This document shows, one piece after another, positions 17,689 through 35,090 of a stretch of DNA of 64,000 nt. Every line of letters starts with the position of its first letter. The stretch's first letter is position 1. A program made the translations under genes and the position numbers. Source of the stretch: Alphaproteobacteria bacterium. Lineage in GTDB: Bacteria > Pseudomonadota > Alphaproteobacteria > CAAHEQ01 > UBA3637. The notes under the pieces are model-generated. The model did not search any database, was not told the origin of the DNA, and saw only the letters and a program-made list of their open reading frames with translations. The stretch covers positions 377-64,376 of the forward strand of contig JAZKXR010000003.1 in NCBI GenBank assembly GCA_045611705.1, in the 5' to 3' direction.

Positions 17689-17710
17689 AAATTGGTGGAG
17701 GTAAGGAGGG
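17689..17710 (-). repeat. att site: duplicate of the tRNA-Ala 3' end
   Basis: AAATTGGTGGAGGTAAGGAGGG is identical to 35011-35032. Confidence 0.93.
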
Positions 17711-17975
17711 GATGCCTATTGCCCCGATTAAATAACTCAAAAGATTAAAATTTTTTTTGAGCTTTTTGGGGGCAATTTTTCTGGTGTATCACCTCTACCA
17801 CACCTTCATCAATGCCAATTTTAATCCATTTCCCTCCTGTTGTCAAGTGATATTTAAAATGGGTTCCAAAATCGCGGTGATACGGAGCTGTGTCCCAGAA
17901 CCAAAAGGACAGAAATTTACCCCATGATGTCTTGGCACAGGTCATGGGGTGGCAAAAGTGTTGGTGTCCCAGATG

Positions 17976-18410
17976 TCAAAAATACCTCAATAACCTCTCG
18001 GTAATCATACGTTGCCCCTCTTCATAAAGTCGGTCTAAATATAGCTGTTTTGTTATGCCATCATTCAGTAAGCTTATATTTCGTATGAGGTTATGAAGTG
18101 AATCTACTGAGGGATGTCTTTGTTCGCAAAGTATCATTCCAAAATAGTATTTGTTCTTGTTTAGGAACTGTTCTGAGAACTGGTATTGACTTTCCACAAG
18201 ACCAAGTTTCCTTAAGTACTTATAGCACTTTGTTATGAATCTGGTGTCTTCTTCCTGATACTTATAGTATGGCTTTTCCAGTTCGCCATCCACTTCTTCA
18301 TCTACCGATTTGAAGGGTTTTGGTTGTGGGGGCACGGTTCGTTTGGCTTCCCCAAGTTTATCCTTAATACGGTTCAAGTTTTCAGAGATTGTATCTAAAT
18401 CTACTATCAT
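17976..18410 (-). CDS. Hypothetical protein, DUF6626-like
   Basis: YKYLRKLGLVESQYQFSEQFLNKNKYYF..PSVDSL pattern; GGAG RBS. Confidence 0.55.
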   Translation of the reverse strand: MIVDLDTISENLNRIKDKLGEAKRTVPPQPKPFKSVDEEVDGELEKPYYKYQEEDTRFITKCYKYLRKLGLVESQYQFSEQFLNKNKYYFGMILCEQRHPSVDSLHNLIRNISLLNDGITKQLYLDRLYEEGQRMITERLLRYF

Positions 18411-18513
18411 TGGGACTCCTTGTTTCCTAACATTTTTATTTATCTCCCTGCGATTAAAAAATGTAATCGGGCAATTTTGAACGGATTTAATTTTTCCTAA
18501 AAAAAGTGGAAAT

Positions 18514-18558
18514 ACGATCTTGACTTAAACAAAAAATTATGCTGATCGATCGGCATAA
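18514..18558 (+). promoter_or_regulatory. Shared element motif, copy 1
   Basis: ACGATCTTGAC-N13-TATGCTGATCGATCGGCATAAC upstream of 18573. Confidence 0.6.
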
Positions 18559-18572
18559 CGAAAGGAAACACA

Positions 18573-18941
18573 ATGACCGAATTTGATGAAAGAAAAAAAC
18601 AACTCATAGAAAAATTGATGTTTTGTAATGGAACAGAACATTATTATACCAATCCGCATTTGGCATTCCAATATACGGATGGGGTAAAAATATTCTGCGA
18701 TATTGCAGAAGCATATTGGGTGTTAGATATTGTAAATAGTGTCGTTAAAACAAAGCCAGAAATGAATAATGACCTAATCAACATTATATTGAAGGTAAAA
18801 GAGGATAAAACAGCAAAAATCACATTTAGACAGCGGATTAAGTTCATTTATAATCAAAAGATTCCTTTTACGGATTGTCCAAGTGGTGAGTGGAAATTTT
18901 ATTTTAAGGATGGGGTGTTTTTCTGGAATGGGGAATACTAA
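18573..18941 (+). CDS. DUF6876-like protein
   Basis: FCNGTEHYY..YTDGVKIFCDIAEAYWVLDIV..QKIPFTDCP..F..GEY. Confidence 0.75.
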   Translation: MTEFDERKKQLIEKLMFCNGTEHYYTNPHLAFQYTDGVKIFCDIAEAYWVLDIVNSVVKTKPEMNNDLINIILKVKEDKTAKITFRQRIKFIYNQKIPFTDCPSGEWKFYFKDGVFFWNGEY

Positions 18942-19369
18942 TGAATAAGGAACAAATCAAAGAAGCGATTTTAGGTCAGCTAAATTGTCGGAAGGAGGAT
19001 ACCCCCTTGTGCCAATTTTCAACATTTTATCCCGACATGGAAATAGTGGAGATTTTGTTAAAGGGGGCTGATATTCAAAAGAGCTTTAACAATCAACCGC
19101 TCGGATGGGTATTTCAGTTCTGTGAACCAAACTGGGACAAGATTCTGGAGCTATTATTCAAATACAAATACTATGCCTTACAACTACACAAAACACGGGA
19201 TTTTGAATACCTTTTGCGATTGTTGGACAGGGTTAAGAAGGAAACAGTCCTGTATGTTTTGAACAGTATGAAGCGACACAATTTCCATTTATCCGAAAAA
19301 CAGACCCTTTTATTACAAAGAGAGGAACACACGAATTTGTTCAAACTCTTCACAGAGGTTTTTGATTAA
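18941..19369 (+). CDS. Hypothetical protein
   Basis: 142-aa ORF coupled to the upstream gene by a TAATG overlap. Confidence 0.6.
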   Translation: MNKEQIKEAILGQLNCRKEDTPLCQFSTFYPDMEIVEILLKGADIQKSFNNQPLGWVFQFCEPNWDKILELLFKYKYYALQLHKTRDFEYLLRLLDRVKKETVLYVLNSMKRHNFHLSEKQTLLLQREEHTNLFKLFTEVFD

Positions 19370-19393
19370 AAAATGTAATCAATAAATAAAGAT

Positions 19394-19873
19394 ATGGATA
19401 AACAACAAGCACTCTTAAAAGCTATCAAAGAAAGAAACCTCAAACTCATTCAATATTATGTAAAAAATGGGGCAGATTTGAACAGGTCATGTTCCCCCAT
19501 TGGAACAACTCCTTTTATGTATGCCATGAACTATTTTCGGAAAGCTGAGGATGTTGAAACCCTGATTGATATGGGTGGAGATGTCAACAAAACCAATGAC
19601 CACGGGGAAACACCCTTGATGTTTGCCGTCCGTGGACAGTGTGATTCAATCATCCCTTGGCTATTTGTGGACTCAGGTGCGAAATTGGATACACAGGATA
19701 TGTGGGGAAATACAGCTTTTATGAGAGTCCTTTTGGATAAGAACATTATCCAGAAAAAGAAACTTCTTTATGCCTTTTTGGATTATGGGGCAGACCTTAC
19801 CAATTTGAAAAATAAAAAGGGGCAAACGGCTTGGGATATTATGTGGGGGATAATAGTGCATAAAGGGGTCTGA
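19394..19873 (+). CDS. Ankyrin-repeat protein
   Basis: NGADLN..GTTPFMYA, GGDVNKTNDHGETPLMFA, GAKLDTQDMWGNTAFM, GADL..KGQTAWD. Confidence 0.88.
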   Translation: MDKQQALLKAIKERNLKLIQYYVKNGADLNRSCSPIGTTPFMYAMNYFRKAEDVETLIDMGGDVNKTNDHGETPLMFAVRGQCDSIIPWLFVDSGAKLDTQDMWGNTAFMRVLLDKNIIQKKKLLYAFLDYGADLTNLKNKKGQTAWDIMWGIIVHKGV

Positions 19874-19957
19874 ACTTTCATTCGCTCGAGGTTAAATATT
19901 TACATAGTTTTCTTAAAAGTAGTAGACTTAATTAAATGTTTAAGATATAATACCACT

Positions 19958-20380
19958 ATGAAAAGTAAGCGAACTCCTTTAATTGAACTGAAACAAGTCA
20001 AGCAAAAAGACAACTCTTATGTAACGACCTCAAATTACAAGGATATACCTGTTACCGCTGAGGACAGAAAAGAGTTGCTTGAAAGATTGCAACTTGTATA
20101 TCAACTCAGAACTTTAGGACATAACTACTGCAAAATGTGTTCAGATAAGGGTAAGTGCTTAGGTTGCATATGGAAACAAATTGATTTCCATCTTCTTTCG
20201 GCAGAAAATCTTATATCTTCTTTAACGGAATTAGTGAATGTATCACGACCTGAAGAGCCTTCGTGGAAACAAGAAGAAAGAGAAGAGTTAAAGAAGGTAC
20301 TCATTAAAAAGTTAATATCTGCTCTTAGCGAAATGCTGTCAGACCTATCTGAGGAGGATTTGGATGTCAAAACAAAATAG
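19958..20380 (+). CDS. Hypothetical protein with a CxxC..CxxC cluster
   Basis: YCKMCSDKGKCLGC. Confidence 0.55.
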   Translation: MKSKRTPLIELKQVKQKDNSYVTTSNYKDIPVTAEDRKELLERLQLVYQLRTLGHNYCKMCSDKGKCLGCIWKQIDFHLLSAENLISSLTELVNVSRPEEPSWKQEEREELKKVLIKKLISALSEMLSDLSEEDLDVKTK

Positions 20381-20744
20381 CAACCTCCCTAATATAAAAG
20401 GACAATACGGTAATTTACTAATTAACTCTGAGATGCCAGCTGAATTACTCTCGGCTGATAATAGAGATGCGATTATCATCTATCATCTGGTAAATGCGTA
20501 TAAGATGCTTGAAAAGCAAAATAGCCAATATACACCACCTAAAGCTTCTATGGCAGGACTATCGCTTAGTGGGCAAGCAGAAGATTTAGTAAAAAATGCA
20601 TTAGAGCTATTATCTGTCCATAACAAACAAAACTTATCTTATCTTATAGATACAACTTCTTTATCCTTGGCAGATATATGGGAGTTTTTGGAAAAATGGA
20701 GAAAAAAACATTCTATTTCTTCGAAAAACTATATTTACTTCTGA
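20364..20744 (+). CDS. Hypothetical protein
   Basis: 126-aa ORF with GGAGG RBS, overlapping the previous gene. Confidence 0.55.
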   Translation: MSKQNSNLPNIKGQYGNLLINSEMPAELLSADNRDAIIIYHLVNAYKMLEKQNSQYTPPKASMAGLSLSGQAEDLVKNALELLSVHNKQNLSYLIDTTSLSLADIWEFLEKWRKKHSISSKNYIYF

Positions 20745-22125
20745 GTTCCTCTAATTTTTGGTAATCTCTAGCCACATAGGCATCTAGAGCATCTTTGGGA
20801 TAAACAATAGACTTATATTCACCTAAGAATGGAATGCTATCTTTTTCGGTTTTGGTTTTATCTCGTTCTCTCATTTTTGCTAAGAACGCCCGAGACCTTC
20901 CAATATATTCGGCAGCTTTCTTTGGTGGATACCAATCTGTTTGATTATCCAATGAAGGAGTGTCGTTTGTATTTTTCTCACTCCTCCTTATTATGTATTC
21001 AGATTCGTAACAACAATTTTTCAATTTAGAACATATATTTGCATAGTTATTTGATTCAATTTTCTCAATTAGTGCACCAGAATTCAGGTATAAATCTGCA
21101 TAGGAGAATTTCCCATTAATCTTCAAATTCGATATTAAGGTATTAGCATATAACAAATCTGCATCATTTATTTTAACATCGCCATCAAATACGCTGTTTT
21201 TTATTTCTAATGTGCCACCTTGCCAAATATATGTTACCTGCTTCATTGTAAGTGCACTGCTCTTTAAGAAATAGCAATCCTGTATTGTAAAACCAAGATA
21301 AATTGAACATGGATACATTGTTATTTTTCCAGCTATTTTGGATTCATGAAATCCTACTGGTCCATGGAAATATCTTGGGAATTTGATATCAGAATCTATC
21401 TCGCACTTACGAAATTCAACTCTGCCCATACCTTTTGAAAAATCAAATGTACCTGTTATATGACAATTATCAAAGATAACAGAATGAACCCATGTATCCA
21501 TTATTGGTGATGAGATTATCTTAGACAAATATTTAGCCAGCTTGTCGTTTACTTCAATATCACGAATAATAATATCCTTATCAAACCCCATCATGTTCTC
21601 TATGGGTATCTCTGATACTTGTAGTTGCGAATGCTCAAAATGAAAGTTTAGTACTTCTTCTTCTAAATCAGGATTATTTCCTGAATGTACAAAAAGATAG
21701 AGGGCTGAAATAAAGCCATCTTCCAATTTTCTCCTGTCATCCTTTGGCAGAAGGGAGTTGGTTTTTACAGTATAATCCTCAATGCCTTCAAAAAATGAGA
21801 TAAGATAACTTAATGCGGGTTTAGTTGTTTCTTGGACCAGGTTCTCACAATTTGCTATGTATCCAAGGATATCGGTTCTCTTTTTGTATTGTCTCAAATC
21901 TATTTGTTTTTCTGGCTTCTTTACCACAAAAAAAGAAATTAGCGTCACTATGTTGTATAGGTGTCTAATTGTCCTATCGACTATGAAAACGCTAGCAACA
22001 TCCCCATAACTGTATAAAACACTTCTTTTTGGGAAAAGACTCGATATAAAAAAGATATCCCGCAGGATAGCCATATAAATCAATTTTTCTTTGTCATCTA
22101 CTTTTTTTACGGCATCTTGTTTCAT
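20713..22125 (-). CDS. Hypothetical protein: central beta-helix-like repeats plus C-terminal Xis-like HTH
   Basis: Periodic F-x-x-C/S-x-I/F repeats; C-terminal WYPPKKAAEYIGRSRAFLAKMRE. Confidence 0.6.
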   Translation of the reverse strand: MKQDAVKKVDDKEKLIYMAILRDIFFISSLFPKRSVLYSYGDVASVFIVDRTIRHLYNIVTLISFFVVKKPEKQIDLRQYKKRTDILGYIANCENLVQETTKPALSYLISFFEGIEDYTVKTNSLLPKDDRRKLEDGFISALYLFVHSGNNPDLEEEVLNFHFEHSQLQVSEIPIENMMGFDKDIIIRDIEVNDKLAKYLSKIISSPIMDTWVHSVIFDNCHITGTFDFSKGMGRVEFRKCEIDSDIKFPRYFHGPVGFHESKIAGKITMYPCSIYLGFTIQDCYFLKSSALTMKQVTYIWQGGTLEIKNSVFDGDVKINDADLLYANTLISNLKINGKFSYADLYLNSGALIEKIESNNYANICSKLKNCCYESEYIIRRSEKNTNDTPSLDNQTDWYPPKKAAEYIGRSRAFLAKMRERDKTKTEKDSIPFLGEYKSIVYPKDALDAYVARDYQKLEELRSKYSFSKK

Positions 22126-22182
22126 AAGTACCTCTTTTAGTCATAATATCAAAAAAATATCCAAAAGTCCAGTAAAACCAGA

Positions 22183-22212
22183 AATGTTAAAAAATCCACC
22201 TTTTTTAACATT
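22183..22212. other. Perfect 12-6-12 palindromic site
   Basis: AATGTTAAAAAA-TCCACC-TTTTTTAACATT. Confidence 0.75.
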
Positions 22213-22324
22213 ATCCCTGTAAGCCCTATAAAATCAACATTTTTGAAAATGCTCTAAAATCCACTCGTGCCAAAATGTTTAACTTTCGCTATAAAAATCA
22301 CTTTTTTTAACATTTTTTATAAAA

Positions 22325-22371
22325 ACGATCTTGACCTTCTTTTCAAAATATGTTGATCAGATCAGCGTAAC
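22325..22371 (+). promoter_or_regulatory. Shared element motif, copy 2
   Basis: ACGATCTTGAC-N13-TATGTTGATC-A-GATCAGCGTAAC upstream of the small integrase. Confidence 0.6.
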
Positions 22372-22404: not shown

Positions 22405-22986
22405 ATGGTAAACCAAGTTTTTATAGATGACAAAAAAATCAAAGATATTCTGACCTACATACAAGGGATGCGACATGCGGAACAAATTCGGATGATGTTC
22501 CTCTGTTCGCTGAATGGTATGAGGTCTATAAATTTCACTTATCTTCAAGCTGGAGATGTATATACCCCAGACCTAAAGGTTAAGGATGTTATTTGTTTGG
22601 ATAAGGATAAAAATAAAGGGAAGTTCGGATGTTCTTATTACCTTAATACCCAGATGAAGAAAGAGTTTAAGGAGTATTTGGGGTATTTGAAGTCCAAAAA
22701 TGAAGAGATTTCCCCAGAAATGTATCTGTTTACCTCTCAAAAGATGGGAAAACCTTTCAACCGTGTTAGCATTAGTAGACTATTCTCAAGTATCTACCAC
22801 AAATTTTCCATAGAAGGAGGATCTCACTTGGGGCGTCACTTGTTCGTGAGTCGCCTTATCAATGCTGGGACCAATATCTGTTTGGTTCAAAAACTCGCCA
22901 ACCATCGAAATGTAGCAACTACTCAAAGGTACTTCAACTATAACGAGAAAATGCTCTCAAATGCCGTGGAGAATATCACGATTTAG
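22405..22986 (+). CDS. Minimal tyrosine recombinase (catalytic domain only)
   Basis: GMR..., SHLGRH (HxxR), LANHRNVATTQRY (H and catalytic Y); 193 aa. Confidence 0.85.
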   Translation: MVNQVFIDDKKIKDILTYIQGMRHAEQIRMMFLCSLNGMRSINFTYLQAGDVYTPDLKVKDVICLDKDKNKGKFGCSYYLNTQMKKEFKEYLGYLKSKNEEISPEMYLFTSQKMGKPFNRVSISRLFSSIYHKFSIEGGSHLGRHLFVSRLINAGTNICLVQKLANHRNVATTQRYFNYNEKMLSNAVENITI

Positions 22987-23762
22987 CGGGAAGATAACAT
23001 TTTTTGTTTAAATAAACTTAAACAATCCTTATATATATACATTTGTTGTTCCTTGTGCTCGTCAGAATATATACCATCCATAAAGTTTGGAGATTGACCG
23101 TCTCCAAAAACAGCAAACGACATAACCATACAATCTGATGCGATATTTGCAAGTTTTTTCCCTTCTGGATTATCTGGAACACGGTCTTCTATTCCCTTCA
23201 TCAAGAAATTCAATTTCCTTTTATCGGCTTTTGATTGTATTTTTTTTGCTTTACCTACCCACTGCTTCATACAGCGGTATCTTCCATCAGAGACTTTTTT
23301 ATAGTCTTCTTTTGTGGGTTCTACAATACTAGTTTTTGGATTTGCTCCTGATTGTTCACAATCGTAATTAAATTTCTCATCTCCTAAAGGATCTCTCATA
23401 CTTTTTACAATACACTCAGCAAAATCTGCATTAAAACCAGATGCCTTTACTCCTTCCAGCATAATATAATACCTTCTATTTGCCCAAAAACAGGTTCTAT
23501 TTTCCTCAGTCATAGCATCTTCCCGTTCTGCTTCCGTTTGTGTTTTATCTTTTTTAGCAAGCAGAGTTAGGTATGCGGTAACGTCTTTCTCAACAAAGCA
23601 CCTCTGTATTGCATATTCATTCGCTTTTTTTGTAATAGGATCAATTTCAGGTAACGTTTGGTGGTTCTCCTCTTGTGAAACTAATGGTGTCTTGGGACTT
23701 TCTTGTGTTGTGTTACAACACACTAAAAAGAATGATAAAAGTAAAATATATATTTTTTTCAA
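22983..23762 (-). CDS. Putative lipoprotein
   Basis: Probable TTG start after AAGGA: MKKIYILLLSFFLVCCNTT (lipobox-like); paired cysteines. Confidence 0.65.
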   Translation of the reverse strand: MKKIYILLLSFFLVCCNTTQESPKTPLVSQEENHQTLPEIDPITKKANEYAIQRCFVEKDVTAYLTLLAKKDKTQTEAEREDAMTEENRTCFWANRRYYIMLEGVKASGFNADFAECIVKSMRDPLGDEKFNYDCEQSGANPKTSIVEPTKEDYKKVSDGRYRCMKQWVGKAKKIQSKADKRKLNFLMKGIEDRVPDNPEGKKLANIASDCMVMSFAVFGDGQSPNFMDGIYSDEHKEQQMYIYKDCLSLFKQKMLSSR

Positions 23763-23772
23763 AGTGATTTCC

Positions 23773-24240
23773 TTACGTATTTTCTTTTTGTAGATGTTTT
23801 GCACGCAATTCTTCAAAGCTGTTAAAATTTTCGGAATCCTTGTTAAAAATTCTTAACAAGTTCTCACGGGTTAGGCATTCTAGCATAAGTTGAGTATAAA
23901 CTCTAACCATTTTTTCATTTCCATCAAACAATCCACTTTCATAACCTAATTTTATATTATCTGGCTCTATCTCATTAATACATTCCAATTCTTCATCAGT
24001 TCTTTGAAAATATACACTAAATAGGTATCTCAAACCCATAAACATGCTGATTGTACTATTAAAATTTATGAATAATATTTTTGCATCCTCATTCCTTTTA
24101 GCCTCATCAATAAGTTGACTTATGGGGGCAAATTCTTTTACTGTTATATCTAGAGGGGATATAACCTCTTTAGAAGGATCACGCCCATATGCTGATCCCG
24201 TAAAGATTAATAAAAACAACACTGTTAGAAATTTTTTCAT
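23773..24240 (-). CDS. Putative secreted protein
   Basis: Signal peptide MKKFLTVLFLLIFTGSAYG. Confidence 0.65.
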   Translation of the reverse strand: MKKFLTVLFLLIFTGSAYGRDPSKEVISPLDITVKEFAPISQLIDEAKRNEDAKILFINFNSTISMFMGLRYLFSVYFQRTDEELECINEIEPDNIKLGYESGLFDGNEKMVRVYTQLMLECLTRENLLRIFNKDSENFNSFEELRAKHLQKENT

Positions 24241-24255
24241 GTTATCCTTTCACAA

Positions 24256-25449
24256 TCAATTTATTTGTTTGTATGGTAAATTACATTTATAGAAAACTGT
24301 TTTTTCTGCTTTTTCTAATTCTTCAACTTTTTTCATTTCCCCATATATATTTTCTTTCATAAAAACAAAACCACGAATTGTTAATAGTCTATTGTCTGAA
24401 TTTGCTGCAAGTTGCTTAATTTTCTTTATAATACAATTTGTATCAGTTTCAGACAATCTATGTCCATTTGCATATGCATCATGTAATCTTGCTAATAGCA
24501 TATTCTCAGGTGCATACAGATCAAAGCATCCTGCAGGTCTTATTGCTGTATATCTTATATCACTCATTATTCCTTTTGTTGTTATTTTCTCATTAACATA
24601 CCGCTGAAGCCACTCTGCATAATCCTCATTATCTAATATAATTGATTGAATTCCAAGTAGACATTTGCAATATGCTCTATAGTCATCTGGCTCACCACCA
24701 TTTTCCTTTGATTCGGAGTATCTACAATGACGATATGCTTTCCAATATGCTTCATGGTCCTCTTGTTCCTCTCTATTTTCTTCCAATTCTTCTTGCTCAC
24801 TTTCGTTCATATATGCTTCGTAAGCTTCTGCGTCTTCTTTGTGTTCATCTAGATTAGTAGATTGAACTTGATTCTCCTCTTTGGGGTATTCTTTTTTGTA
24901 GAAAGTAGAAAAAATCCCTCCTGTGACGAGGAGTATACTTAATATAATTGAAAGCCATATTATTTTAGAGTATTTTTTATGTTTTTTCTTCTTTTTCGGA
25001 GTAATTTTTTGAGCAATTAATTCGTTTTGTTTATTATTTAATTTTTTGTAATCTTTATAACATTTTCTGAGTAAATAAACAGCTACACCAAAAATTATAG
25101 CTCCAAGAACTATTACAAAGACGTACCCTGAGGTTCTTTCTGGTATTTTTCCAACATATATTGAAGAAGTTATGATTAAAAACAGTCCATATAAAGAAAG
25201 AGAGATACCTGCAATAAATCTTTTATAGTTTGGGAGTATGCAATATATAATACTATACAATGCAAAACTATACACTCCTTCCTGTGTCATTCTACGATAC
25301 CAAGAAACCGTTTGATACATTGAATCACGTCCTGTATGTATTTCAATCCAATGCCAAATAAATGCGACAATGATAGCCCCAATTACCCCACAGGGAATTG
25401 CTAATATGTATCTTATAAAGTTAATTAGCTTACTACTATTCTCTTTCAT
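24256..25449 (-). CDS. Membrane protein with several N-terminal TM helices and an acidic, Cys-containing soluble domain
   Basis: About five hydrophobic segments, then an E-rich linker; AGGAGGA RBS before ATG at 25449. Confidence 0.65.
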   Translation of the reverse strand: MKENSSKLINFIRYILAIPCGVIGAIIVAFIWHWIEIHTGRDSMYQTVSWYRRMTQEGVYSFALYSIIYCILPNYKRFIAGISLSLYGLFLIITSSIYVGKIPERTSGYVFVIVLGAIIFGVAVYLLRKCYKDYKKLNNKQNELIAQKITPKKKKKHKKYSKIIWLSIILSILLVTGGIFSTFYKKEYPKEENQVQSTNLDEHKEDAEAYEAYMNESEQEELEENREEQEDHEAYWKAYRHCRYSESKENGGEPDDYRAYCKCLLGIQSIILDNEDYAEWLQRYVNEKITTKGIMSDIRYTAIRPAGCFDLYAPENMLLARLHDAYANGHRLSETDTNCIIKKIKQLAANSDNRLLTIRGFVFMKENIYGEMKKVEELEKAEKTVFYKCNLPYKQIN

Positions 25450-27562: not shown

Positions 27563-29155
27563 TTCTTCATTGCAAGCACATAATTTTTCCAATACGTATT
27601 GGTAGTGTTGTTTTAAACTACTATGTTTCTTTTTTGTTTCTTCAATTAATTTGTTTTCTTTTTCTATATTACGATGTCCATGTGTATGGTTTCTGATTTC
27701 GGTTATTTCATTTAAAATTTTTAAGATGTTAATATCTTTACCAAGATATTCAAAAATTTGTTTTAATAAACTGATACTTTTATCCTTAGGATTGTATGTA
27801 ATCTGTTTTTTTTGAAGGAATTTCTTCAATTTTGTTTCTGGAAGACTATTAATGAAAATTGTATGTAATGTCCCTATATTGTCAGCCCAACTTTTACTAT
27901 TTTCATCTAAAAGTCTGGGAATCTTTATTGATTGAATTTTAACAAAGGGGGATAATTTTTTCTTTTGTTCTTCTAATTTCGCATATACATCCTTTTGTGT
28001 ATAAAAATTCCCCTGAAAATCATTTGTCCAAGCCTGTTCAGACAGTCCTCCTAAAGGTCCATTCATTGGAGGGGCTATATTATATGATTTCCAATATAGT
28101 TGTTCTTGGTAAGGAAGTGCCCTTAAGTAGCATGGATAAGTTGATACACTATCTCCATTTAAATCAAAACATTGAAGATACCATCCTGGACAGGAAATAC
28201 TTCGTGATTCAATGATGTATTTTCCTGGATTATCTTGATATTTTTTCAATACTTCGCTTTTGAAAAATATTGGGGATGTTTCAAAAGGTAGTTTTTCTTT
28301 TTGCTCAAAGTAATTCGTAAAATATTTAGGAGCAATAGAACAAGTTCTTTTTTTCTTATACCTAAAATCATATATTATAAAAGTTTCATATTTGGGTTTT
28401 TCAAATGTAAAATGCTTGTCATAATAGGTTAGTTCTTTAATATTTGTTTGGATATTAACAATGTAATAGCCATGTGTAAATGAAGCAAACGTTCCAGTCT
28501 GATATTCACCCGATGTAATAAAAGTTGGAATAGGATGTTCATCCTCATATGTTGCAGAAAGTCCTTTCCCTGGGACGACTCGTGTACAATCAAAGTGGCG
28601 GGATAAAACATAGTTATTAATCCACATATAATAATCTAAGTATTTTCTCTTAAAGGTTATATATCTAAAATTTTTGTATGTCTTTTCACTAATAATTTCT
28701 TCAATATCCCCAGATTCATCAAATCGACAAAATGCATTTTTATGAGGGACATAATGCAAATCTAACACATTTGTCATTTTTTGTGAAAATTCAAAATAGT
28801 CAACTTGTTCTCCTTCTAATCTTCCACTAAAACTTGTATAGATATAAGGCATATCAAAGTCTTCAATATGAGCAACTTCTGTTATTTTCCTTTCTCTTTT
28901 TGCTTTTGTTTTCCATGAAATATCCCAAAAACGTTCCTTTATAAAAGAGGCACCAAAATTGAATGTATTTAAGCATTCTTTTTTCACAAATAGAGAAGAA
29001 ATTAAAATATTTTCTTTGTTTGATACAAAAAGCACCACATCTTCTGGAGTATCCAAATTCTTTAAAAATTCAAAAAAATCTTGCAAAGAAAGCCATTTAT
29101 TTTTTTGTGATTCTGAATATACTAATAATCTATCTATTTTTGTATTTAAATCCAT
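27527..29155 (-). CDS. Hypothetical protein with a possible C-terminal HEPN-like motif
   Basis: 542 aa; EIRNHTHGH near the C-terminus; AT-rich; convergent with the resolvase. Confidence 0.6.
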   Translation of the reverse strand: MDLNTKIDRLLVYSESQKNKWLSLQDFFEFLKNLDTPEDVVLFVSNKENILISSLFVKKECLNTFNFGASFIKERFWDISWKTKAKRERKITEVAHIEDFDMPYIYTSFSGRLEGEQVDYFEFSQKMTNVLDLHYVPHKNAFCRFDESGDIEEIISEKTYKNFRYITFKRKYLDYYMWINNYVLSRHFDCTRVVPGKGLSATYEDEHPIPTFITSGEYQTGTFASFTHGYYIVNIQTNIKELTYYDKHFTFEKPKYETFIIYDFRYKKKRTCSIAPKYFTNYFEQKEKLPFETSPIFFKSEVLKKYQDNPGKYIIESRSISCPGWYLQCFDLNGDSVSTYPCYLRALPYQEQLYWKSYNIAPPMNGPLGGLSEQAWTNDFQGNFYTQKDVYAKLEEQKKKLSPFVKIQSIKIPRLLDENSKSWADNIGTLHTIFINSLPETKLKKFLQKKQITYNPKDKSISLLKQIFEYLGKDINILKILNEITEIRNHTHGHRNIEKENKLIEETKKKHSSLKQHYQYVLEKLCACNEELIAVFSDIISL

Positions 29156-29476
29156 GTCAATTTCTTTCGTTTTAGTTGCTATTTTTATTGATTACTAATA
29201 TATGGGTATGACCTAATCGAAAGTCAACCTCCAAAGCACTCCCTCGCCAAAAGGCGGCTGAGGTTATTTTATTTTAGGATATGATGGCTTTTGGCTGTTA
29301 TGGGTATTACTTTGTTATCAACTCCCTAAAGGGTTCTATTTTACTTAAAAAGGAAGGAATCTATTGTCATATTTTGGTCTATAATAGATTCTTTTTTATT
29401 TCTATTATAATTCTATTATAGCAACAAAAAACGCCCAGATAGCCCTTGATATTATTGATGTTTCTTAAAATGCACC

Positions 29477-29618
29477 GAACATAACAGTCTCCGCAAGTGA
29501 ACATAACGGTCTTCGGTACTGAACATAACGGTTATCGCCCCCGAACATAACGGTCTTCAAAATCACAAAATGCGAACATAACAGTCTCCACCCCCTAAAA
29601 AAGCGAACATAACGGTCT
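29477..29618 (+). repeat. Six iteron-like direct repeats (putative replication origin)
   Basis: GAACATAACRGTYW at 29477, 29499, 29521, 29543, 29574, 29605 (spacings 22, 22, 22, 31, 31); AT-rich tract to the left; Rep-like gene ~80 bp downstream. Confidence 0.85.
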
Positions 29619-29699
29619 CCGCAAAGATTTTTTTGTTCAAATGAGTATTCGGATGGTCAAACGAATAAATACCTCTGTAAAACAATTTAAGGAGGCAAT

Positions 29700-30242
29700 A
29701 TGAGCAAAAGTAAATCAGATTTATCCATCACCAAACGAGTCCTGTTGGACTTTATTAAATACAAGACCCAAAATGGGCATCAGTTCTTTGCCAGTAATGA
29801 TTATGTGGCAAAAGGTTTGGATTTGACAGAGAATACCGCTAAAACCTTTGTGAATGATTTAATCCGTGATGGCTATCTTTATAAAGAGATAGATAAACAA
29901 GGAAGACGCATCTTGTCCCTGACTGGTAAAGAATATCGCCCCTTGTTTGAGGATATGCGGAACATTGACAAGAAGGTGTTAAAGGAAGACAGGGATAATT
30001 TTGAACGGGAAAATAAGTACCTGAATGAACAACTTTCCATGGAAAATGCACATGTTGAGCAACTTACCAATCAAAATACAGAGTTGGTTTTGTCCAATGC
30101 GGAACTAACAGCTCGTGTTCAAAAGTTAGAGAATGAACTTGCAGGGCTTAAAAAGCGTGTATCCAGTTTGGAAAATATCTTTTATCAAAATGGAATGTCA
30201 CCAAATCAGTTGGAAGAGTTAATCCAGAAATCCAATCAATAA
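29700..30242 (+). CDS. Winged-HTH replication initiator-like protein with coiled-coil tail
   Basis: FFASNDYVAKGLDLTENTAKTFVNDLIRDGYL; AGGAGG RBS. Confidence 0.7.
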   Translation: MSKSKSDLSITKRVLLDFIKYKTQNGHQFFASNDYVAKGLDLTENTAKTFVNDLIRDGYLYKEIDKQGRRILSLTGKEYRPLFEDMRNIDKKVLKEDRDNFERENKYLNEQLSMENAHVEQLTNQNTELVLSNAELTARVQKLENELAGLKKRVSSLENIFYQNGMSPNQLEELIQKSNQ

Positions 30243-30312: not shown

Positions 30313-30325
30313 TTTGGCAATTATT

Positions 30326-30610
30326 TTACCAGTATTTTTTAAGTTCTTCATTGATAAGCACATCCATATAGGGGGTCTTATTAAACCAACTATATGCAAA
30401 AGCATTACGACCGTATTTGTCGGTGTGATGCACATCAGCCCCTTGCTCTAAAAGGTATTTAATTAGTTCTATATCTGTGGTAAAGGCACAAGCTAATTCT
30501 AGTACTGTGCCACCTTCTTTTCCAATTTCAGTGTTGATATCAGGAAGGAGTTTCAGTAATTTCTGAACTCCTTCCATTGTGTCAATGTGGCATACTTCAT
30601 TATTATCCAT
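30326..30610 (-). CDS. Short ankyrin-repeat protein
   Basis: PDINT..GGTVLELAC..LIKYLLEQGADVHHTDKYGRNAF. Confidence 0.75.
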   Translation of the reverse strand: MDNNEVCHIDTMEGVQKLLKLLPDINTEIGKEGGTVLELACAFTTDIELIKYLLEQGADVHHTDKYGRNAFAYSWFNKTPYMDVLINEELKKYW

Positions 30611-30791
30611 TGTTATCCCCCTTGGTTTCCAGCTCATCCATAATCTTCAAAAACTCCAAGATTTGGGTTTTATTTTTCTCCTTAGCTCCATCATAAATCA
30701 TTAGTATTCCCTGCAAGGCTGGACGTAATTCTTTATCAGAGGCATATTTTAGTGCATCTCTGATGCCTTCAATTATTCTTTCTTCTAACAT
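30603..30791 (-). CDS. Small hypothetical protein
   Basis: 62 aa; AAGGAG RBS; overlaps the ankyrin gene start. Confidence 0.55.
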   Translation of the reverse strand: MLEERIIEGIRDALKYASDKELRPALQGILMIYDGAKEKNKTQILEFLKIMDELETKGDNNG

Positions 30792-30950: not shown

Positions 30951-30990
30951 GTATATCGAAATATATCGTAATATATCCAAATATATCGAA
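30951..30990. repeat. Four tandem 10-bp repeats
   Basis: GTATATCGAA ATATATCGTA ATATATCCAA ATATATCGAA. Confidence 0.75.
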
Positions 30991-31123
30991 AATGGGCATT
31001 TTTCAAAAATTTTAATTTTGATGGGCTTGTTTTATTTTTCTAAATGCATATTATCTTGCTCACCGATGCGGGATGGTCCCGCAAAGGTGTAAAAAATCTG
31101 ATTAAACGAAAGGAAAATTAAAA

Positions 31124-31630
31124 ATGTCAGAAAATGTAAATGTGGTCTCGATTGAAGACTTTATGGGCAATTTTGGAATTGTCCCGATGGCAACAACAAG
31201 AGATGAAGGTTTAGTCTCTTTTGATGTATGTAAACAACGTGTCTTGGACTTGATTAAACTCAACATCAAGAACTTTAAAGAGGACCTCTGGAAGAAAGAG
31301 AACCGAATGATGAAGTTATTGGTGGACTTAGATGATAAGCGTAAGAAATCTATCTTTACGGTTCGTCTGGGTGGCAAGAGAATCTATCGCTGTAATATGC
31401 AAATGTTAGAACCACAACAAAAAGTGGAATTCTTAACAAAGTTTTACGAAGCTGTGTCTCGTGGATACTTGGATAAAAAGATTGTAGATTTTTGTGAAAA
31501 AGAGGTCGATTTGGCTAATGCTCGCAAGAAAAAACAAAAAGAGAAACGTAGAGAAAAGAAGAAAGCTGAAAAAGCAGCAGAGGAAGCAAAAAAGGCAGAA
31601 GCCTTAAAGCATCTGCCTCAGAATGTTTAA
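31124..31630 (+). CDS. Hypothetical protein with a basic coiled-coil C-terminus
   Basis: GAAAGG RBS; K/E-rich tail. Confidence 0.65.
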   Translation: MSENVNVVSIEDFMGNFGIVPMATTRDEGLVSFDVCKQRVLDLIKLNIKNFKEDLWKKENRMMKLLVDLDDKRKKSIFTVRLGGKRIYRCNMQMLEPQQKVEFLTKFYEAVSRGYLDKKIVDFCEKEVDLANARKKKQKEKRREKKKAEKAAEEAKKAEALKHLPQNV

Positions 31631-31700
31631 TTTATCAACGGGAGTTAGGAAGACTCGTACTCTTTCTAACTCTCTCCAAACTAACGAAAGGTATTATACT

Positions 31701-31991
31701 ATGACAGAAAATAAAAGTCAAATAGAAATTATTGACCCTATTATGGATAATAATTTAGACGGATACGAACCAGATGAATGTGAATATGCTCCCAAGAAGA
31801 TTAGCAAAATTGAAGCCATCATTTATGATTGGGTGGTAGACAATTTTGGAACTTCTGAAGCAATGTCTCCCTCATGGAACATTACCATGTTGGCTGAAGC
31901 AATTCATGAAAATCTTAATGATGACTACGAACAATCTAATACAGTAGTTTATGAAAATGAAGGGGAATACGATGATGAAGATGATGAATAA
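31701..31991 (+). CDS. Small acidic hypothetical protein
   Basis: GAAAGG RBS; ends EYDDEDDE. Confidence 0.6.
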   Translation: MTENKSQIEIIDPIMDNNLDGYEPDECEYAPKKISKIEAIIYDWVVDNFGTSEAMSPSWNITMLAEAIHENLNDDYEQSNTVVYENEGEYDDEDDE

Positions 31992-32136
31992 AAAAGTTTG
32001 TATGCGGGACGCTTTGCGGCAACTGCATCAGCCAAAATCAGTTTATCTGGATTACCTCTACAGTTCTGAAGAAGACAAGAGATTCTTGGAACACGTTGTT
32101 CAGACAGTTCTGGAAAAGGGCTATATGCCTGCATAA
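31981..32136 (+). CDS. Small hypothetical protein
   Basis: Overlaps the previous stop and fills the operon gap. Confidence 0.4.
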   Translation: MMNKKVCMRDALRQLHQPKSVYLDYLYSSEEDKRFLEHVVQTVLEKGYMPA

Positions 32137-32151
32137 TGAAAGGAGGTAAAA

Positions 32152-32742
32152 ATGCCAAATTGGTGTGAAAACACAGTGACTATGTATGGTGATGAGAAGT
32201 CCTTACAGGAATGCTTTGATAAATTCGGAGGTAATGAGGAAACTATTGATTTTGATAGAATAATCCCAACACCAAAAGAATTAGAAGAAGTCATTGCAGT
32301 TGCTACTTTATCCGAAGATGTTCAACTGGTAAAAGATGAAAAAGCTGGAAAGGAAATACCTGAAAACGATAAGAAAAGATTAGATTCAATAATTAGAAAT
32401 AATATATCCTATCGTCAGAATGCAGAAAAGTCCTTGTTTTGTTTAGAACATTACGGTGCGGACAGTTGGTATGACTGGCATGTTGAACATTGGGGAACAA
32501 AATGGAACGCAAATACGGAGGATTTTGGTTTTCCATGTGGGTGGTCAACTTACCACGGCAAACCCTCTTGCCATTTCGTATTCTATACGGCTTGGGTTGC
32601 TGCCGTACCAATTATTGAAAAACTATCTGCTATGTATCCCAAACTTACATTTCGTCTTCATGAGCGAACGCATGGAGAAAACATAGATAATATATATGTT
32701 TTTCGGAATGGTCGCTTAACAAGGCAGGTAAAGAATTTGTAA
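32152..32742 (+). CDS. DUF1281/YubB-like protein
   Basis: MPNWCEN..IDFDRIIPTP..WYDWHVEHWGTKWNA..FYTAW. Confidence 0.8.
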   Translation: MPNWCENTVTMYGDEKSLQECFDKFGGNEETIDFDRIIPTPKELEEVIAVATLSEDVQLVKDEKAGKEIPENDKKRLDSIIRNNISYRQNAEKSLFCLEHYGADSWYDWHVEHWGTKWNANTEDFGFPCGWSTYHGKPSCHFVFYTAWVAAVPIIEKLSAMYPKLTFRLHERTHGENIDNIYVFRNGRLTRQVKNL

Positions 32743-32773
32743 GTACAAATAAAAAAGAGCAAATTCTGCACGA

Positions 32774-32817
32774 ACGATCTTGACTTAAGAAATTAAATCA
32801 ATACGATCTGCGACATA
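32774..32817 (+). promoter_or_regulatory. Shared element motif, copy 3 (integrase promoter)
   Basis: ACGATCTTGACT-N16-TACGATC..CATA upstream of the integrase. Confidence 0.55.
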
Positions 32818-32830
32818 AAGGAAAACCAAT

Positions 32831-34591
32831 ATGTCGTATCACTACCCAGGACTCGTTGCTCGAAAAAGGCTATTTTACTTTCGCTTAAAGATACCAAAAC
32901 CTTTAAGGGTAATAGCCAGATGTACAGAGGTCGTTTACTCGTTAAACACCCCTGTATATCAGGAAGCAATCGAGAAATGGCGTGTGGAATTTGCTCATTT
33001 ACAAGCATTTTTAACAATATTTAAGGATACAATTATGAAAGTAAATGAGAATAAAAAATTAGTTTTAAACAAAGCTGACGTGGATAAGCTATTGCTCCAC
33101 AGATTAGAACAAATCCAAACATTTTTGGAGGATAATACAGAGGAAATCAAATCCAGACATAAGACTGAAGCGGACATTATTTTATTCCCCAATGGGAAAA
33201 AAGAAGCCGATATACGGAAATTAATGAAGAATACGATTTTGGATTACCTGAAAGGACTTATGGATGAAAATAAAGCCAACATAACCCTCAGGACTGTATA
33301 CCACCAGCTTAAAAATAAAGAAATTGAGTTGGGATTGGTGGGGGAAAAAGACAAATATGATTGGTTGAAAGCGTTTTCAAACCACATCAGTAATTTAGAC
33401 CATTATGCTAAAAAGGCTGTGAAAGCTACGCAAGAAGATAAACTTTATACCCCAACTAACCCGAAGGTTATAACACTTTTACGAACCTATGACACTATGA
33501 AGACTGATGAACGAATTCATCATTCTATGGCAGCAACCCATTGGGAAAAGTTCTTTAAACGTTTTGCAAGAATGAAGCGTGATTTGAAAGGTGTCAGTGA
33601 AAATCGTATTGTAAATAATCATATGGTGATTCAATTGGCGTTTTTATTGATGGGCAAGGAACATATTGAAGAAATTACTTCTCAAGACTGCCGAAAATTA
33701 TGCCAAAACATATACCATGTAAGGAAAAGGTGGCATGAGAGAATCAAAGAGAATTGTGATGTTAGTCAAATTCTCACCGATAATCCTAAGCTAAGCATTA
33801 GTAAGAGAACTGTTCGTGCTCACCTTGTAACCTTTAAAGAATATATGAGATACGCTGTAAAAGAGGAAATAATCCCAAATAGCCTAAGTGACTATGTAGA
33901 TATGCCACTTAAGTTTGACAACAACAATAGGATCCCATTTACACCATCGGATTTAAAAAGGATTTTTGATCCTTTGAATTATCCAGACCCGCATTTAAGA
34001 GCTAACCAAGCAAAGTTCTGGATTCCGATTATAGCTCTTTATCACGGATGCCGACAGAACGAAATCTGCCAATTAGATGTTAATGATATTGTAATAGAAA
34101 AAGACATTCCTTGTATTAGTATCAATGATGATGGTGATGATAAATCTGTTAAGAATTCAAGTTCAAAAAGAATTATCCCTATACATCCTAAATTAGTTGA
34201 TATGGGTTTCTTAAGCTATGTAGATTACCAGCGTAAGAACAAGCATAAGAAGTTGTTCCCAGAACTAACAAGAACAAAGCAAAATGGCTATGCAAGAGTG
34301 ATACAAGGGTGGTTTGGCAGATACTTGGATAAGATTGGCATAAGAGATAAGAAAAAGGTCTTTCACTCTTTCCGACATACCTTTGAGACTAAAGCAGTAG
34401 AAATAAAAATGCCTATTGAATACCAAAATGCCATTTGTGGATGGACTGATAGAGGTGTTGGTCAAAGAATATATGGTAAAAAGAAGAATATAAATGTAAC
34501 CTTTGAAGAAATTAGCAAGATTAACTTCCCTGTTAAACGTGAGCTGAATGAATTAAAGAAAAAGTTTATGGACAGCTATGTAATGAAATAG
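32831..34591 (+). CDS. Tyrosine integrase with a DUF6538-like N-terminal domain
   Basis: N-terminal FYFRLKIPKPL..VVYSLNT; catalytic GCRQNEI, VKNSSSKR, FHSFRH, ICGW, IYG; adjacent to the tRNA att. Confidence 0.93.
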   Translation: MSYHYPGLVARKRLFYFRLKIPKPLRVIARCTEVVYSLNTPVYQEAIEKWRVEFAHLQAFLTIFKDTIMKVNENKKLVLNKADVDKLLLHRLEQIQTFLEDNTEEIKSRHKTEADIILFPNGKKEADIRKLMKNTILDYLKGLMDENKANITLRTVYHQLKNKEIELGLVGEKDKYDWLKAFSNHISNLDHYAKKAVKATQEDKLYTPTNPKVITLLRTYDTMKTDERIHHSMAATHWEKFFKRFARMKRDLKGVSENRIVNNHMVIQLAFLLMGKEHIEEITSQDCRKLCQNIYHVRKRWHERIKENCDVSQILTDNPKLSISKRTVRAHLVTFKEYMRYAVKEEIIPNSLSDYVDMPLKFDNNNRIPFTPSDLKRIFDPLNYPDPHLRANQAKFWIPIIALYHGCRQNEICQLDVNDIVIEKDIPCISINDDGDDKSVKNSSSKRIIPIHPKLVDMGFLSYVDYQRKNKHKKLFPELTRTKQNGYARVIQGWFGRYLDKIGIRDKKKVFHSFRHTFETKAVEIKMPIEYQNAICGWTDRGVGQRIYGKKKNINVTFEEISKINFPVKRELNELKKKFMDSYVMK

Positions 34592-34916
34592 AACACTTTT
34601 GGTAAAATTGCTTTTCACAACATTGGTCTTGTCAAGATATGCACAATATCTTCCAAGACCATTTTTGTTGCCGATGAACATGGGGAATGAAGGGCACAAA
34701 ATCCACTTTGTCAAAATATCCAGTTTTGTTATGAGAGCAGCGGTCATCTGAAGGTAGATTCTCTTTTAAAGGGTTAAAAAAGTAAAAGGGCAAAGGTCTT
34801 GATTTGGCAGGAAAAGCAAAGGGACATTTTGGCATAAATTTCATAAATCCAAATTTTGTCTAATCTTCGTAAATCTGCTTCAAAATAAGGGTGATTTTTG
34901 ACTCTGTTTTAATATC

Positions 34917-34953
34917 TTGGTGTTACAGCTTGGTGTCACACCTCGGTGTTACA
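34917..34953 (+). repeat. Three 11-bp direct repeats (probable integrase arm-type sites)
   Basis: TTGGTGTTACA, TTGGTGTCACA, TCGGTGTTACA at a 13-bp period; related TTGGTGTCCCA at 17961. Confidence 0.65.
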
Positions 34954-34977
34954 CCTAAAAACCCGAATTTTGGGCAT

Positions 34978-35004
34978 AAAAAAAGCCTTGATAAACAAGG
35001 CTTT
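34978..35004 (-). terminator. Terminator downstream of tRNA-Ala
   Basis: AAAGCCTTG-loop-CAAGGCTTT with A/T run. Confidence 0.7.
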
Positions 35005-35014
35005 AATTTGAAAT

Positions 35015-35090
35015 TGGTGGAGGTAAGGAGGGTCGAACTCCTGACCTTTGCAATGCCATTGCAACGCTCTACCAACTGAGCTATACCCCC
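35015..35090 (-). tRNA. tRNA-Ala(GGC)
   Basis: GGGGGTATAGCTCAGTTGGTAGAGCG-TTGCA-AT-GGC-AT-TGCAA-AGGTCAGGAGTTCGACCCTCCTTACCTCCACCA, 76 nt, encoded CCA. Confidence 0.97.

Follow-up and report, generated by a model that had tools for sequence, protein, structure and literature searches.

A putative non-self-transmissible integrative island at a tRNA-Ala gene, from a large mosaic family of gut and rumen Alphaproteobacteria

We have analysed a 64-kb window of an alphaproteobacterial contig (GenBank assembly GCA_045611705.1, contig JAZKXR010000003.1) and, within this window, the DNA from 17689 to 35032, which ends at a tRNA-Ala gene. With a probability that we put at about 0.7, this segment is an intact, non-self-transmissible integrative genomic island of a large, undescribed mosaic family. 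The testable defining features of a tRNA-targeting tyrosine-recombinase island are all present, and the circle was not observed. Searches of Pfam and PHROGs with every open reading frame (ORF) of the island found no relaxase, type IV secretion system (T4SS), capsid, portal or terminase. New here are the targeting of many tRNA genes, the optional Rep-like module, the lineage-matched sites, the attB junctions, and a defence slot with an unnamed protein that carries a HEPN motif. In what follows, L numbers denote loci and X numbers denote sequence runs.

The ends of the island and its integration module consist of the following features.

35015 to 35090, minus strand: tRNA-Ala(GGC), the integration target (ARAGORN)
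17689 to 17710, unstranded: attL core, the distal duplicate of the tRNA-Ala 3' end
35011 to 35032, unstranded: attR core, within the intact tRNA-Ala
17663 to 17681, minus strand: original tRNA-Ala terminator hairpin, just outside the element and now parted from the tRNA
34982 to 35004, minus strand: element-borne terminator, now 3' of the tRNA-Ala
32831 to 34591, plus strand: tyrosine integrase (Int), 586 aa, with an N-terminal DUF6538 domain and a Phage_integrase domain (Pfam)
34919 to 34953, plus strand: three arm-type repeats GGTGTYACA, 13-bp spacing
17976 to 18410, minus strand: DUF6626 protein (Pfam DUF6626, E 6.8e-9)

The 22-bp sequence AAATTGGTGGAGGTAAGGAGGG occurs as a direct repeat in exactly two copies in the window, one at each border of the island and 17,322 bp apart from start to start, so that the island measures 17.3 kb. 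The right copy is made up of the final 18 nt of the tRNA-Ala and 4 further nt. Even with 3 mismatches allowed, there is no third copy in the window (0.00 expected from shuffling), and so no sign, within the window, of a tandem array that extends into the defence island on the left. On the plus strand, each copy is preceded by its own terminator hairpin, and the two hairpins differ. Two different terminators, one outside and one inside the element, are expected if the insertion cut the tRNA from its terminator and brought a replacement. A hairpin similar to the element-borne one precedes the att core in L046 and L048, and the P-arm region is conserved in 12 relatives. In an Rfam scan, the tRNA alone scored above threshold. 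One sub-threshold match, to the 'Betaproteobacteria toxic sRNA' (17656 to 17714, minus strand; 30.8 bits versus a gathering score of 50), covers the old terminator and the att core, and is most likely just the terminator hairpin.

The integrase gene lies beside the target tRNA and ends 420 bp from the att core. The full catalytic set of the protein (R408, K441, H512, R515, W538 and Y548) is invariant among 17 aligned sequences. The triplet of arm repeats has equivalents in relatives (TGTGTCCCAC in L046 and TGTGTACGAC in L048), and among the window, L046 and L048 it keeps its position while its sequence varies by integrase lineage. The fixed place of the triplet and the tracking of the integrase lineage by its sequence suggest that the integrases are functional and evolve with their sites. 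Phage and plasmid integrases from plasmid and phage collections share only 24-38% identity with the window integrase, and an exact-protein look-up of the latter gave no match. The DUF6626 gene directly follows int in a subfamily of integrases with 53% identity and in the minimal locus L021. The DUF6626 protein may be the excision or directionality factor, for which it is our candidate. Our literature search found no paper naming DUF6538, DUF6626 or DUF6876.

A genome scan yielded 23 loci with relatives of the integrase (51-97% identity), all of them in metagenome-assembled genomes (MAGs) labelled as uncultured Alphaproteobacteria from rumen, colon or faeces. The integrase is followed by a tRNA gene on the opposite strand in 18 of the 23 loci. 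The target among these 18 is a tRNA for Ala, Thr, Leu, Met, Glu, Val, Asp or Ser, and the family thus uses at least 8 different tRNA genes. In L011, L012 and L018, which belong to the 53%-identity subfamily and have no such tRNA, a fragment resembling a tRNA 3' end follows int instead; here, the integrase would sit at the far end of the element.

We defined the backbone of the family by tblastn of all island proteins against the 23 loci and by ORF clustering. Apart from the integrase, it comprises a 168-aa protein (g31124; 13 loci by tblastn, 14 by ORF clustering), an ankyrin protein (13 loci), the DUF6626 protein (12), the Rep-like protein (11) and a serine recombinase (6, and in addition L049). 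An Api92-like protein, a DUF6876 protein and a small tyrosine recombinase are less frequent members. The segments 19394 to 22125, 22983 to 26666 and 27527 to 29155 are unshared cargo of the window island. Three relatives are complete and bounded by repeats, namely L046 (12.3 kb, with TGGTGCCGCAGGTGAGA at both ends), L022 (5.9 kb) and L021 (5.4 kb). L021 contains Int, DUF6626, three cargo genes and nothing else. The Rep/iteron module is missing from all three, and L046 is also without the serine recombinase. Int and DUF6626 are therefore the sole part common to every complete element, and Rep is optional.

Database searches with the family proteins return hundreds of clusters. No virion or transfer gene was found in any of about 20 relatives, and only two matches in the family carry phage names. 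One, weak and spanin-like (PHROG, E 0.005), falls in a membrane protein of the window, and the other is a Mu F-like/lysozyme protein in L022. The latter (L022, 4205 to 5092; 295 aa) combines a Phage_Mu_F-like fragment with a lysozyme-like region, and has the look of a toxin or cargo fusion rather than of a head protein. The island has no DNA match among 72,556 plasmid records or among the INPHARED phage records. No member of the family turned up among 2.9 million IMG/VR contigs when these were searched with the integrase and with profiles of integrase and Rep, and the closest integrases there are 31-35% identical. We also found no paper on mobile elements of these gut and rumen Alphaproteobacteria. 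The family is large, undescribed and highly mosaic, and its hosts are uncultured Alphaproteobacteria of gut and rumen.

Unoccupied target sites are found in strains that are related to the host of the island. The JGI rumen contig L035 keeps the gene order tRNA-Ala(GGC), NUDIX, HAD and glycosyltransferase (GT2), with 62-71% amino acid identity, and has no island. In run X66, a 48-nt unitig with a depth of 19.4 consists of window positions 17671 to 17710 followed by TCGAACTC, that is of left flank, core and tRNA body. A contig of run X65 continues from 17710 into 196 more bases, which start with TCGAACTCCTGACCTTTGCAATGCCATTGC, the sequence of window positions 35033 to 35062. In both, the original terminator hairpin is joined directly to the core and the tRNA body. 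These joints are attB junctions at exactly the predicted crossover. The backbone modules are 10-50x deeper than the chromosomal flank in runs X1 and X4. We rejected this depth as copy-number evidence for replication, because the excess stems from the many related islands that such mixed communities contain.

Upstream of the Rep-like gene, the island contains a region with the layout of an iteron replicon, in which phased direct repeats lie next to an AT-rich region and to the gene for a putative binding protein.

29156 to 29699, plus strand: origin-like region with hairpin, AT-rich block, six iterons and promoter-like stretch
29383 to 29424: nearly invariant AT-rich block with internal repeats (from the alignment of related regions)
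29477 to 29616: six exact GAACATAACRGT iterons with spacings of 22, 22, 22, 31 and 31 bp (0.52 expected by chance)
29700 to 30242, plus strand: Rep-like protein, 180 aa (HTH_36, E 3.8e-6)

The 544 bp that lie 5' of the Rep-like gene are conserved in nine loci, with 68-78% identity over 200-480 nt in the six best. The alignment gives the order as a conserved hairpin, the AT-rich block, iterons at 22- or 31-bp spacing, and the promoter-like stretch. The Rep-like protein consists of an N-terminal winged helix, a coiled coil, and a conserved C-terminal LENIFYxNG motif. Its PHROG matches are weak (DnaD-like, 8e-6; replication initiation, 2.6e-4; O-like, 2e-3), and it matches no established Rep family in Pfam or NCBIfam. 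The protein family amounts to 112 representative clusters among 1.84 billion; ten were looked up, and none of these is named. The iteron differs between lineages: it is GAACATAACGGTC in the window, L001, L008 and L018, GGAAACAACGCTATCC in L003 and L007, and L013 and L019 have other variants. Between the window and L007, the Rep proteins are 82% identical, with the differences concentrated in the N-terminal winged helix. Iteron and winged helix co-vary here as a site and its protein. A PIF1-type helicase is encoded two genes downstream of Rep in L013; the window island itself encodes neither helicase nor primase.

The pair of iterons and Rep-like protein could be something other than an origin, namely an autoregulatory operator or a partition-like or silencing module, in which case the island would never replicate by itself. 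The iterons stop about 80 bp upstream of the start codon, beside the promoter-like stretch, and a single winged helix with a coiled coil is also found in many repressors. The matches to replication families are weak (E 1e-3 to 1e-5), and the module is dispensable in complete relatives. Set against this, six phased repeats at two or three helical turns, next to a nearly invariant AT-rich block, are the classical layout of an iteron origin. Leaving aside generic helix-turn-helix (HTH), coiled-coil and chance-level matches, the Rep-like protein matches HTH_36 and the DnaD-like, replication-initiation and O-like families, and no others. The PIF1 helicase of L013 lies close downstream of Rep, and a serine recombinase often goes with the module, as it does in plasmids. 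We consider a purely regulatory or silencing role rather unlikely, and lean, somewhat beyond even odds, towards a true origin.

The main biological content of the island is a defence hotspot, which occupies the slot bounded by the serine recombinase gene and the iterons. The features of the slot, and of the recombinase genes discussed with it, are these.

27527 to 29155, minus strand: 542-aa protein in the hotspot, with a beta-rich N-terminal part and a helical C-terminal domain
26942 to 27562, plus strand: serine recombinase, 206 aa (Resolvase and HTH_38), bordering the cargo slot
22405 to 22986, plus strand: minimal tyrosine recombinase, 193 aa, catalytic domain only (Phage_integrase, E 8e-16)
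22188 to 22314, unstranded: three 25-nt direct repeats, upstream of the 193-aa tyrosine recombinase

In relatives, the slot is occupied by GmrSD (L003), a Dsr1-like protein with its partner (L008), Lamassu LmuA/LmuB (L013), a DrmD-like SNF2 helicase (L018), a Fic/PDC-S72 protein (L017) or an autotransporter (L016). In L049, whose Rep is 97% identical to that of the window, it holds an RVT_1 reverse transcriptase.

In the window island, the slot holds the 542-aa protein. HEPN RNases carry an R-x4-6-H motif. Residues R488 and H494 of the 542-aa protein, which form an R-x5-H motif, are invariant in 28 aligned homologues and lie in the all-helical, confidently modelled C-terminal domain. The AlphaFold2 (AF2) model has a mean predicted local distance difference test score (pLDDT) of 83. 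Foldseek searches with this model gave weak matches to Avs3 (E 5e-3) and to the HEPN toxins 7bxo, 2hsb and 7ae6 (E 0.5-1.6). The protein has no match in Pfam, PHROG, PADLOC or NCBIfam, nor in an exact-protein look-up. Its 37 homologues come from varied sources, and the few that are named belong to Acidobacteriota, Proteobacteria, Bdellovibrionales, Burkholderia and Flavitalea. Homologues are found within type I restriction-modification (R-M) operons, as in L029 and L032/L033, where KilA-N, ORF6N, SIR2-like, ClpP-like and TIR genes lie nearby; these neighbourhoods may hold more unnamed defence genes. Motif and context together suggest that the 542-aa protein is probably an unnamed abortive-infection or defence protein.

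The genes for the two small recombinases lie at borders between conserved and variable DNA. The serine recombinase matches NF009949 (Mpi master DNA invertase) over its full length (E 4e-66), with 222.5 bits, below the NCBIfam equivalog cut-off of 272. The 193-aa tyrosine recombinase is XerA/XerD-like and has a weak full-length match to the tyrosine-type DNA invertase PRK09870; L011 carries a copy with 80% identity, and the gene is also present in L046. The 25-nt repeats coincide with the right edge of a shared cassette, where contigs end at 22175 to 22350, and contigs from other samples diverge at 26855 to 26876. A role of either recombinase in an inverton was discarded, since there are no convincing inverted repeats and the contigs contain no inverted form or strand-switch joint. 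We note a perfect 11-nt inverted repeat (26714 to 26724 and 26871 to 26881) that spans 146 bp between the lipoprotein operon and the serine recombinase; roughly estimated, chance alone would yield about 0.03 pairs of this kind. From the placement of their genes, the small recombinases most likely resolve multimers and/or promote cassette exchange.

The features that a first-pass annotation had read from the letters alone are all confirmed in place. This applies to the identical 22-bp ends, the DUF6538 integrase, the arm-like repeats, the iterons with their Rep-like gene, the extra minimal tyrosine recombinase, the ankyrin and lipoprotein cargo, and the lack of relaxase, T4SS, capsid and terminase. 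The suggestion that the element might be undescribed in this lineage is borne out by a family that is restricted to the lineage and has neither literature nor annotated relatives. The gene called a serine resolvase does encode a serine recombinase, with the Mpi master-invertase family as its closest relative, albeit below the cut-off. The term integrative replicon is a fair working model for this island, but it does not define the family, because L046, L022 and L021 are without Rep and iterons. For the helper and the satellite lifestyle that the annotation proposed, no sign was found among hallmark genes, IMG/VR contigs or attP junctions in the runs examined, and the defence hotspot had escaped it. 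Of the proposed search for attP circles and empty attB sites, the second part succeeded (the junctions in X66 and X65 and the empty locus L035), whereas attP was not seen.

In the model that we favour, the integrase, probably aided by the always-linked DUF6626 protein, would excise the island as a circle and reinsert this circle. In the present member of the family, the circle would probably be copied from the iteron origin, bound by the 180-aa winged-helix Rep-like protein. This protein would have to recruit the helicase and primase of the host (or of a helper), because the island encodes neither. The serine and minimal tyrosine recombinases at the slot edges would act in multimer resolution and/or cassette exchange. 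The service of the island to the cell would be its cargo. The HEPN-motif protein of the hotspot would most likely be an abortive-infection RNase, and the other slots would supply envelope lipoproteins, ankyrin proteins and small acidic or Api92-like proteins. Transfer from cell to cell must, in this model, rely on an outside agent such as a phage, a conjugative element, a gene transfer agent or transformation.

Several points weigh against this model. The empty sites stem from related, not identical, strains. The attP joint is absent from 11 runs, but none of these covers the element deeply enough to be of use, and rare forms are lost from Logan contigs. In no public run is the element complete (the best word shares are 0.37 and 0.24), and in the 2026 raw-read runs X61 to X63 it is entirely absent. 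As neither attP nor a public run with the whole element was seen, present-day excision is a step that we infer. The role of the DUF6626 protein is proposed purely from its association with int. As to replication, the origin-like region contains no DnaA box, the Rep-like protein is short and has a single winged helix, and no relatives of it were detectable among plasmid records, phage records or the PDB, by sequence or by profile. Because the iterons directly precede the rep promoter, they may serve solely as operators, and the absence of Rep from complete relatives implies that the family can persist without replication. The assignment to HEPN draws on the motif, weak fold matches and the gene neighbourhood, and a profile search of the PDB with the 542-aa protein was empty.

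A bolder joint reading goes further than the non-self-transmissible island that we propose. It would make the family a lineage-specific class of helper-dependent integrative replicons, with two extra recombinases that exchange cassettes at fixed cargo slots, and this class the main shuttle of defence and host-interaction genes in uncultured gut Alphaproteobacteria. The 542-aa protein would be a new abortive-infection system. As part of the same reading, the backbone of Int, DUF6626 protein, 168-aa protein, ankyrin protein, single-winged-helix initiator and private iterons would be without counterpart in described satellites, integrative mobilizable elements (IMEs) and plasmids. We regard this reading, in both its parts, as speculative and doubtful.

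The vehicle of transfer is where other interpretations differ. The island could be an IME that has nothing but an origin of transfer (oriT) and, as mobilizable genomic islands do, borrows relaxase and T4SS from a conjugative element in the same cell. A gene content of int, putative excision partner and cargo and nothing else would suit such an element, as would the Api92-like/DUF1281 and small acidic protein genes beside int, and the conserved non-coding hairpin regions could hide an oriT. However, neither a relaxase or coupling protein nor a recognisable oriT is present in the window or in the relatives (for oriT, recognition needs a known partner). The 72,556 plasmid records contain no match either at the DNA level or for Rep, and no conjugative element lies within the 64-kb window. 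We therefore hold an IME to be improbable.

Marginally less probable still is a phage satellite that is induced by a helper, replicates from its iterons via the phage replisome, as the phage-inducible chromosomal island-like elements (PLE) do with their RepA and iterons, and is packaged into helper capsids by unrecognised hijacking proteins among its hypotheticals. The size of 17 kb and the integrase at the edge, facing the att site, are what one would expect of a satellite. The same is true for the own initiator-like protein and iterons in combination with the lack of helicase and primase, and for the many small backbone proteins without known fold. The defence hotspot, too, resembles the hotspots of antiviral systems that P4-like satellites are reported to carry (PMC9122126). 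Yet the satellite hallmarks (AlpA/Stl, Pri-Rep or alpha primase-helicase, TerS, capsid, Sid/Psu/Delta/Cpm, cos/pac, large serine recombinase, RepA_N) are absent from the Pfam and PHROGs results for 26 ORFs and for the relatives. IMG/VR contains no Rep relative and only distant integrases, and INPHARED nothing. Complete relatives of 5.4-12.3 kb are entirely without Rep, and no helper phage is known for this lineage.

The decayed remnant of a prophage or of an integrative and conjugative element (ICE) that kept integrase and att sites, which the first-pass annotation had named as the outcome that would overturn its reading, could account for the absence of transfer and virion genes but is nearly refuted: the att copies are identical, the catalytic residues of the integrase are intact, no gene was seen to be broken, one and the same compact backbone is found at more than 20 loci with different tRNAs and in hundreds of database clusters, T4SS, capsid, portal, terminase and tail genes are all lacking, with the spanin-like protein as sole PHROG match of this kind, and the right flank is ordinary chromosome.

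Besides the modules discussed so far, the island that we propose contains the following cargo and backbone features.

17745 to 17945, minus strand: basic 66-aa ORF (pI 9.5) at the left end, an uncertain gene without family match
18573 to 19369, plus strand: DUF6876 protein (122 aa) and 142-aa protein, a recurrent accessory pair also present in L022 and L046
19394 to 19873, plus strand: ankyrin-repeat protein, 159 aa, cargo (Ank_2 and Ank_4, E about 1e-13)
19958 to 22125, mixed strands: cassette of proteins of 140 aa (plus), 126 aa (plus) and 470 aa (minus)
22983 to 26666, minus strand: six-gene envelope cargo block, not found in any relative
30326 to 30637, minus strand: backbone ankyrin protein, 103 aa, conserved in 13 relatives
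30952 to 30991, unstranded: four tandem 10-bp repeats similar to TATATCGAAA, in the divergent promoter region between the ankyrin and 168-aa genes
31124 to 31630, plus strand: backbone 168-aa basic protein with a lysine-rich C-terminal helix (71 database clusters)
31623 to 32742, plus strand: acidic 122-aa protein (pI 4.1) and 196-aa Api92-like protein (DUF1281_C; phrog_12644, E 1.4e-20)

The proteins of the three-gene cassette have no Pfam, PHROG, PADLOC, NCBIfam or PDB match; by eye, the middle of the 470-aa protein seems repetitive and its C-terminus HTH-like. The cassette (19.65-22.3 kb) occurs in four faecal or pig-gut runs as stand-alone contigs of 2.4-2.6 kb with about 99% identity, without the rest of the island, which points to a recent exchange of modules. 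The envelope block encodes two secreted proteins (277 aa and 155 aa), a multi-pass membrane protein (411 aa), a probable lipoprotein (135 aa), and two paralogous, canonical 117-aa lipoproteins (phrog_7441) with an LSAC lipobox. Together with the two ankyrin proteins, these make up the ankyrin and lipoprotein cargo mentioned above.

The intergenic region between the ankyrin and 168-aa genes is 85-93% conserved in L002 and L007. The few named clusters of the 168-aa protein come from Alphaproteobacteria MAGs. Its AF2 model is moderately confident (pLDDT 77.5) and has no structural match in the PDB or BFVD. Between the 168-aa gene and int, most relatives have acidic proteins with an NPR[KR][DE]VVEWAL motif in the slot that is taken by the acidic and Api92-like genes in the window. 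Plasmid leading regions typically carry genes of the Api92-like/DUF1281 and small acidic kinds, and by analogy one might guess at an anti-restriction or early-entry role. The related islands L011/L016 (SUUS01000016.1), L002, L003, L021 and L001 carry host-interaction and stress genes as cargo, which encode a serpin, an autotransporter with Chlamydia PMP repeats, MORN-repeat and SlipAM proteins, an LD-carboxypeptidase, a Y-family polymerase of the ImpB/UmuC type, and Hsp20.

The chromosome to the right of the tRNA-Ala is ordinary, with genes for NUDIX and HAD proteins, a glycosyltransferase, NrdD, DnaE, TruB and AlaS. Further along, the 834-aa protein at 46453 to 48957 (minus strand) matches EGF_TEN, teneurin-type EGF repeats, with 69 bits versus a cut-off of 65, a eukaryote-like domain. 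On the left, the DNA from 2330 to 17352 is another, mobile-looking defence island.

2330 to 5383: hsdR of a type I R-M system
6193 to 7320: PIN_12 gene, inserted into this system
7320 to 8618: hsdS
8621 to 10378: hsdM
10839 to 11549: SRA-HNH nuclease
12336 to 14042: large serine recombinase
16492 to 17352: AbiEii toxin

A 195-aa ORF that precedes the AbiEii toxin may be its AbiEi partner. The GC content is 25-27% at 1 to 3000, before and within hsdR, and 42-43% at 11-14 kb; the island has 32-36%, and the chromosome about 40%. The stretch from 14000 to 17688 has a word share of about 0.6 in many unrelated gut metagenomes (bovine, chicken, faeces), far above that of the island or the right flank, and probably belongs to a mobile segment of its own that has spread widely. 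Left of 17605, the sequence of run X66 differs from that of the window.

If the island is what we take it to be, its family is a concrete and abundant vehicle of gene flow in gut and rumen Alphaproteobacteria, known here only from MAGs. The fixed slot is a ready place to seek new anti-phage genes. The optional pair of initiator and iterons, which comes without helicase or primase and switches its specificity by lineage, offers a test case for short-term autonomy. A helper, if one were found, would make the family a new satellite or mobilizable class.

Among known systems, the phage satellites, that is PLE of Vibrio cholerae, the Staphylococcus aureus pathogenicity islands and other phage-inducible chromosomal islands (SaPI/PICI), and the P4-like elements, share with the island a size of 10-18 kb, site-specific integration, and an initiator gene next to iterons. 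Most of the other genes of satellites are unrecognisable, and their replication and packaging depend on a helper. The island differs in that it lacks the large serine recombinase and RepA_N protein of PLE, and also the primase-helicases and the capsid or terminase remodelling genes of PICI and P4. In addition, its family is not found in IMG/VR, and the Rep module is optional.

The closest concept is that of the tycheposons. These are reportedly tyrosine-recombinase islands at the 3' ends of several tRNA genes, with modular cargo, an unknown vehicle, and replicative modules of the primase/helicase type. The host phylum and the integrase family are different, the island integrase having a DUF6538 N-terminus. 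The island backbone of DUF6626, 168-aa, ankyrin and Rep-like proteins is also different, and no sequence relationship was seen. Tycheposons have been presented as novel integrative elements of Prochlorococcus, which mostly lacks the usual transfer mechanisms (10.1101/2020.12.28.424599).

With IMEs and mobilizable genomic islands (MGIs) of the SGI1 type, the island has in common an integrase, an excision factor (putative in the island) and cargo, and the lack of a T4SS. Defence systems are often carried by MGIs and SGI1. Unlike them, the island has no recognised relaxase, mobilisation protein, oriT mimic or known conjugative partner. Iteron plasmids (the pPS10, R6K and F RepE class) and integrative plasmids resemble it in the AT-rich block, the phased repeats, the downstream rep gene and the recombinase nearby. 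In contrast to their initiators, the island Rep has 180 aa, one winged helix and a coiled coil, and belongs to no established Rep family; moreover, the island is without DnaA box or partition genes and is integrated in the chromosome. Finally, the fixed slot with a differing defence system in each relative is a feature shared with the defence hotspots of other mobile elements (PMC10121019), including pipolins (PMC11551731), whereas the carrier, the flanking genes (Mpi-like serine recombinase and iteron/Rep module) and the host lineage are new here.

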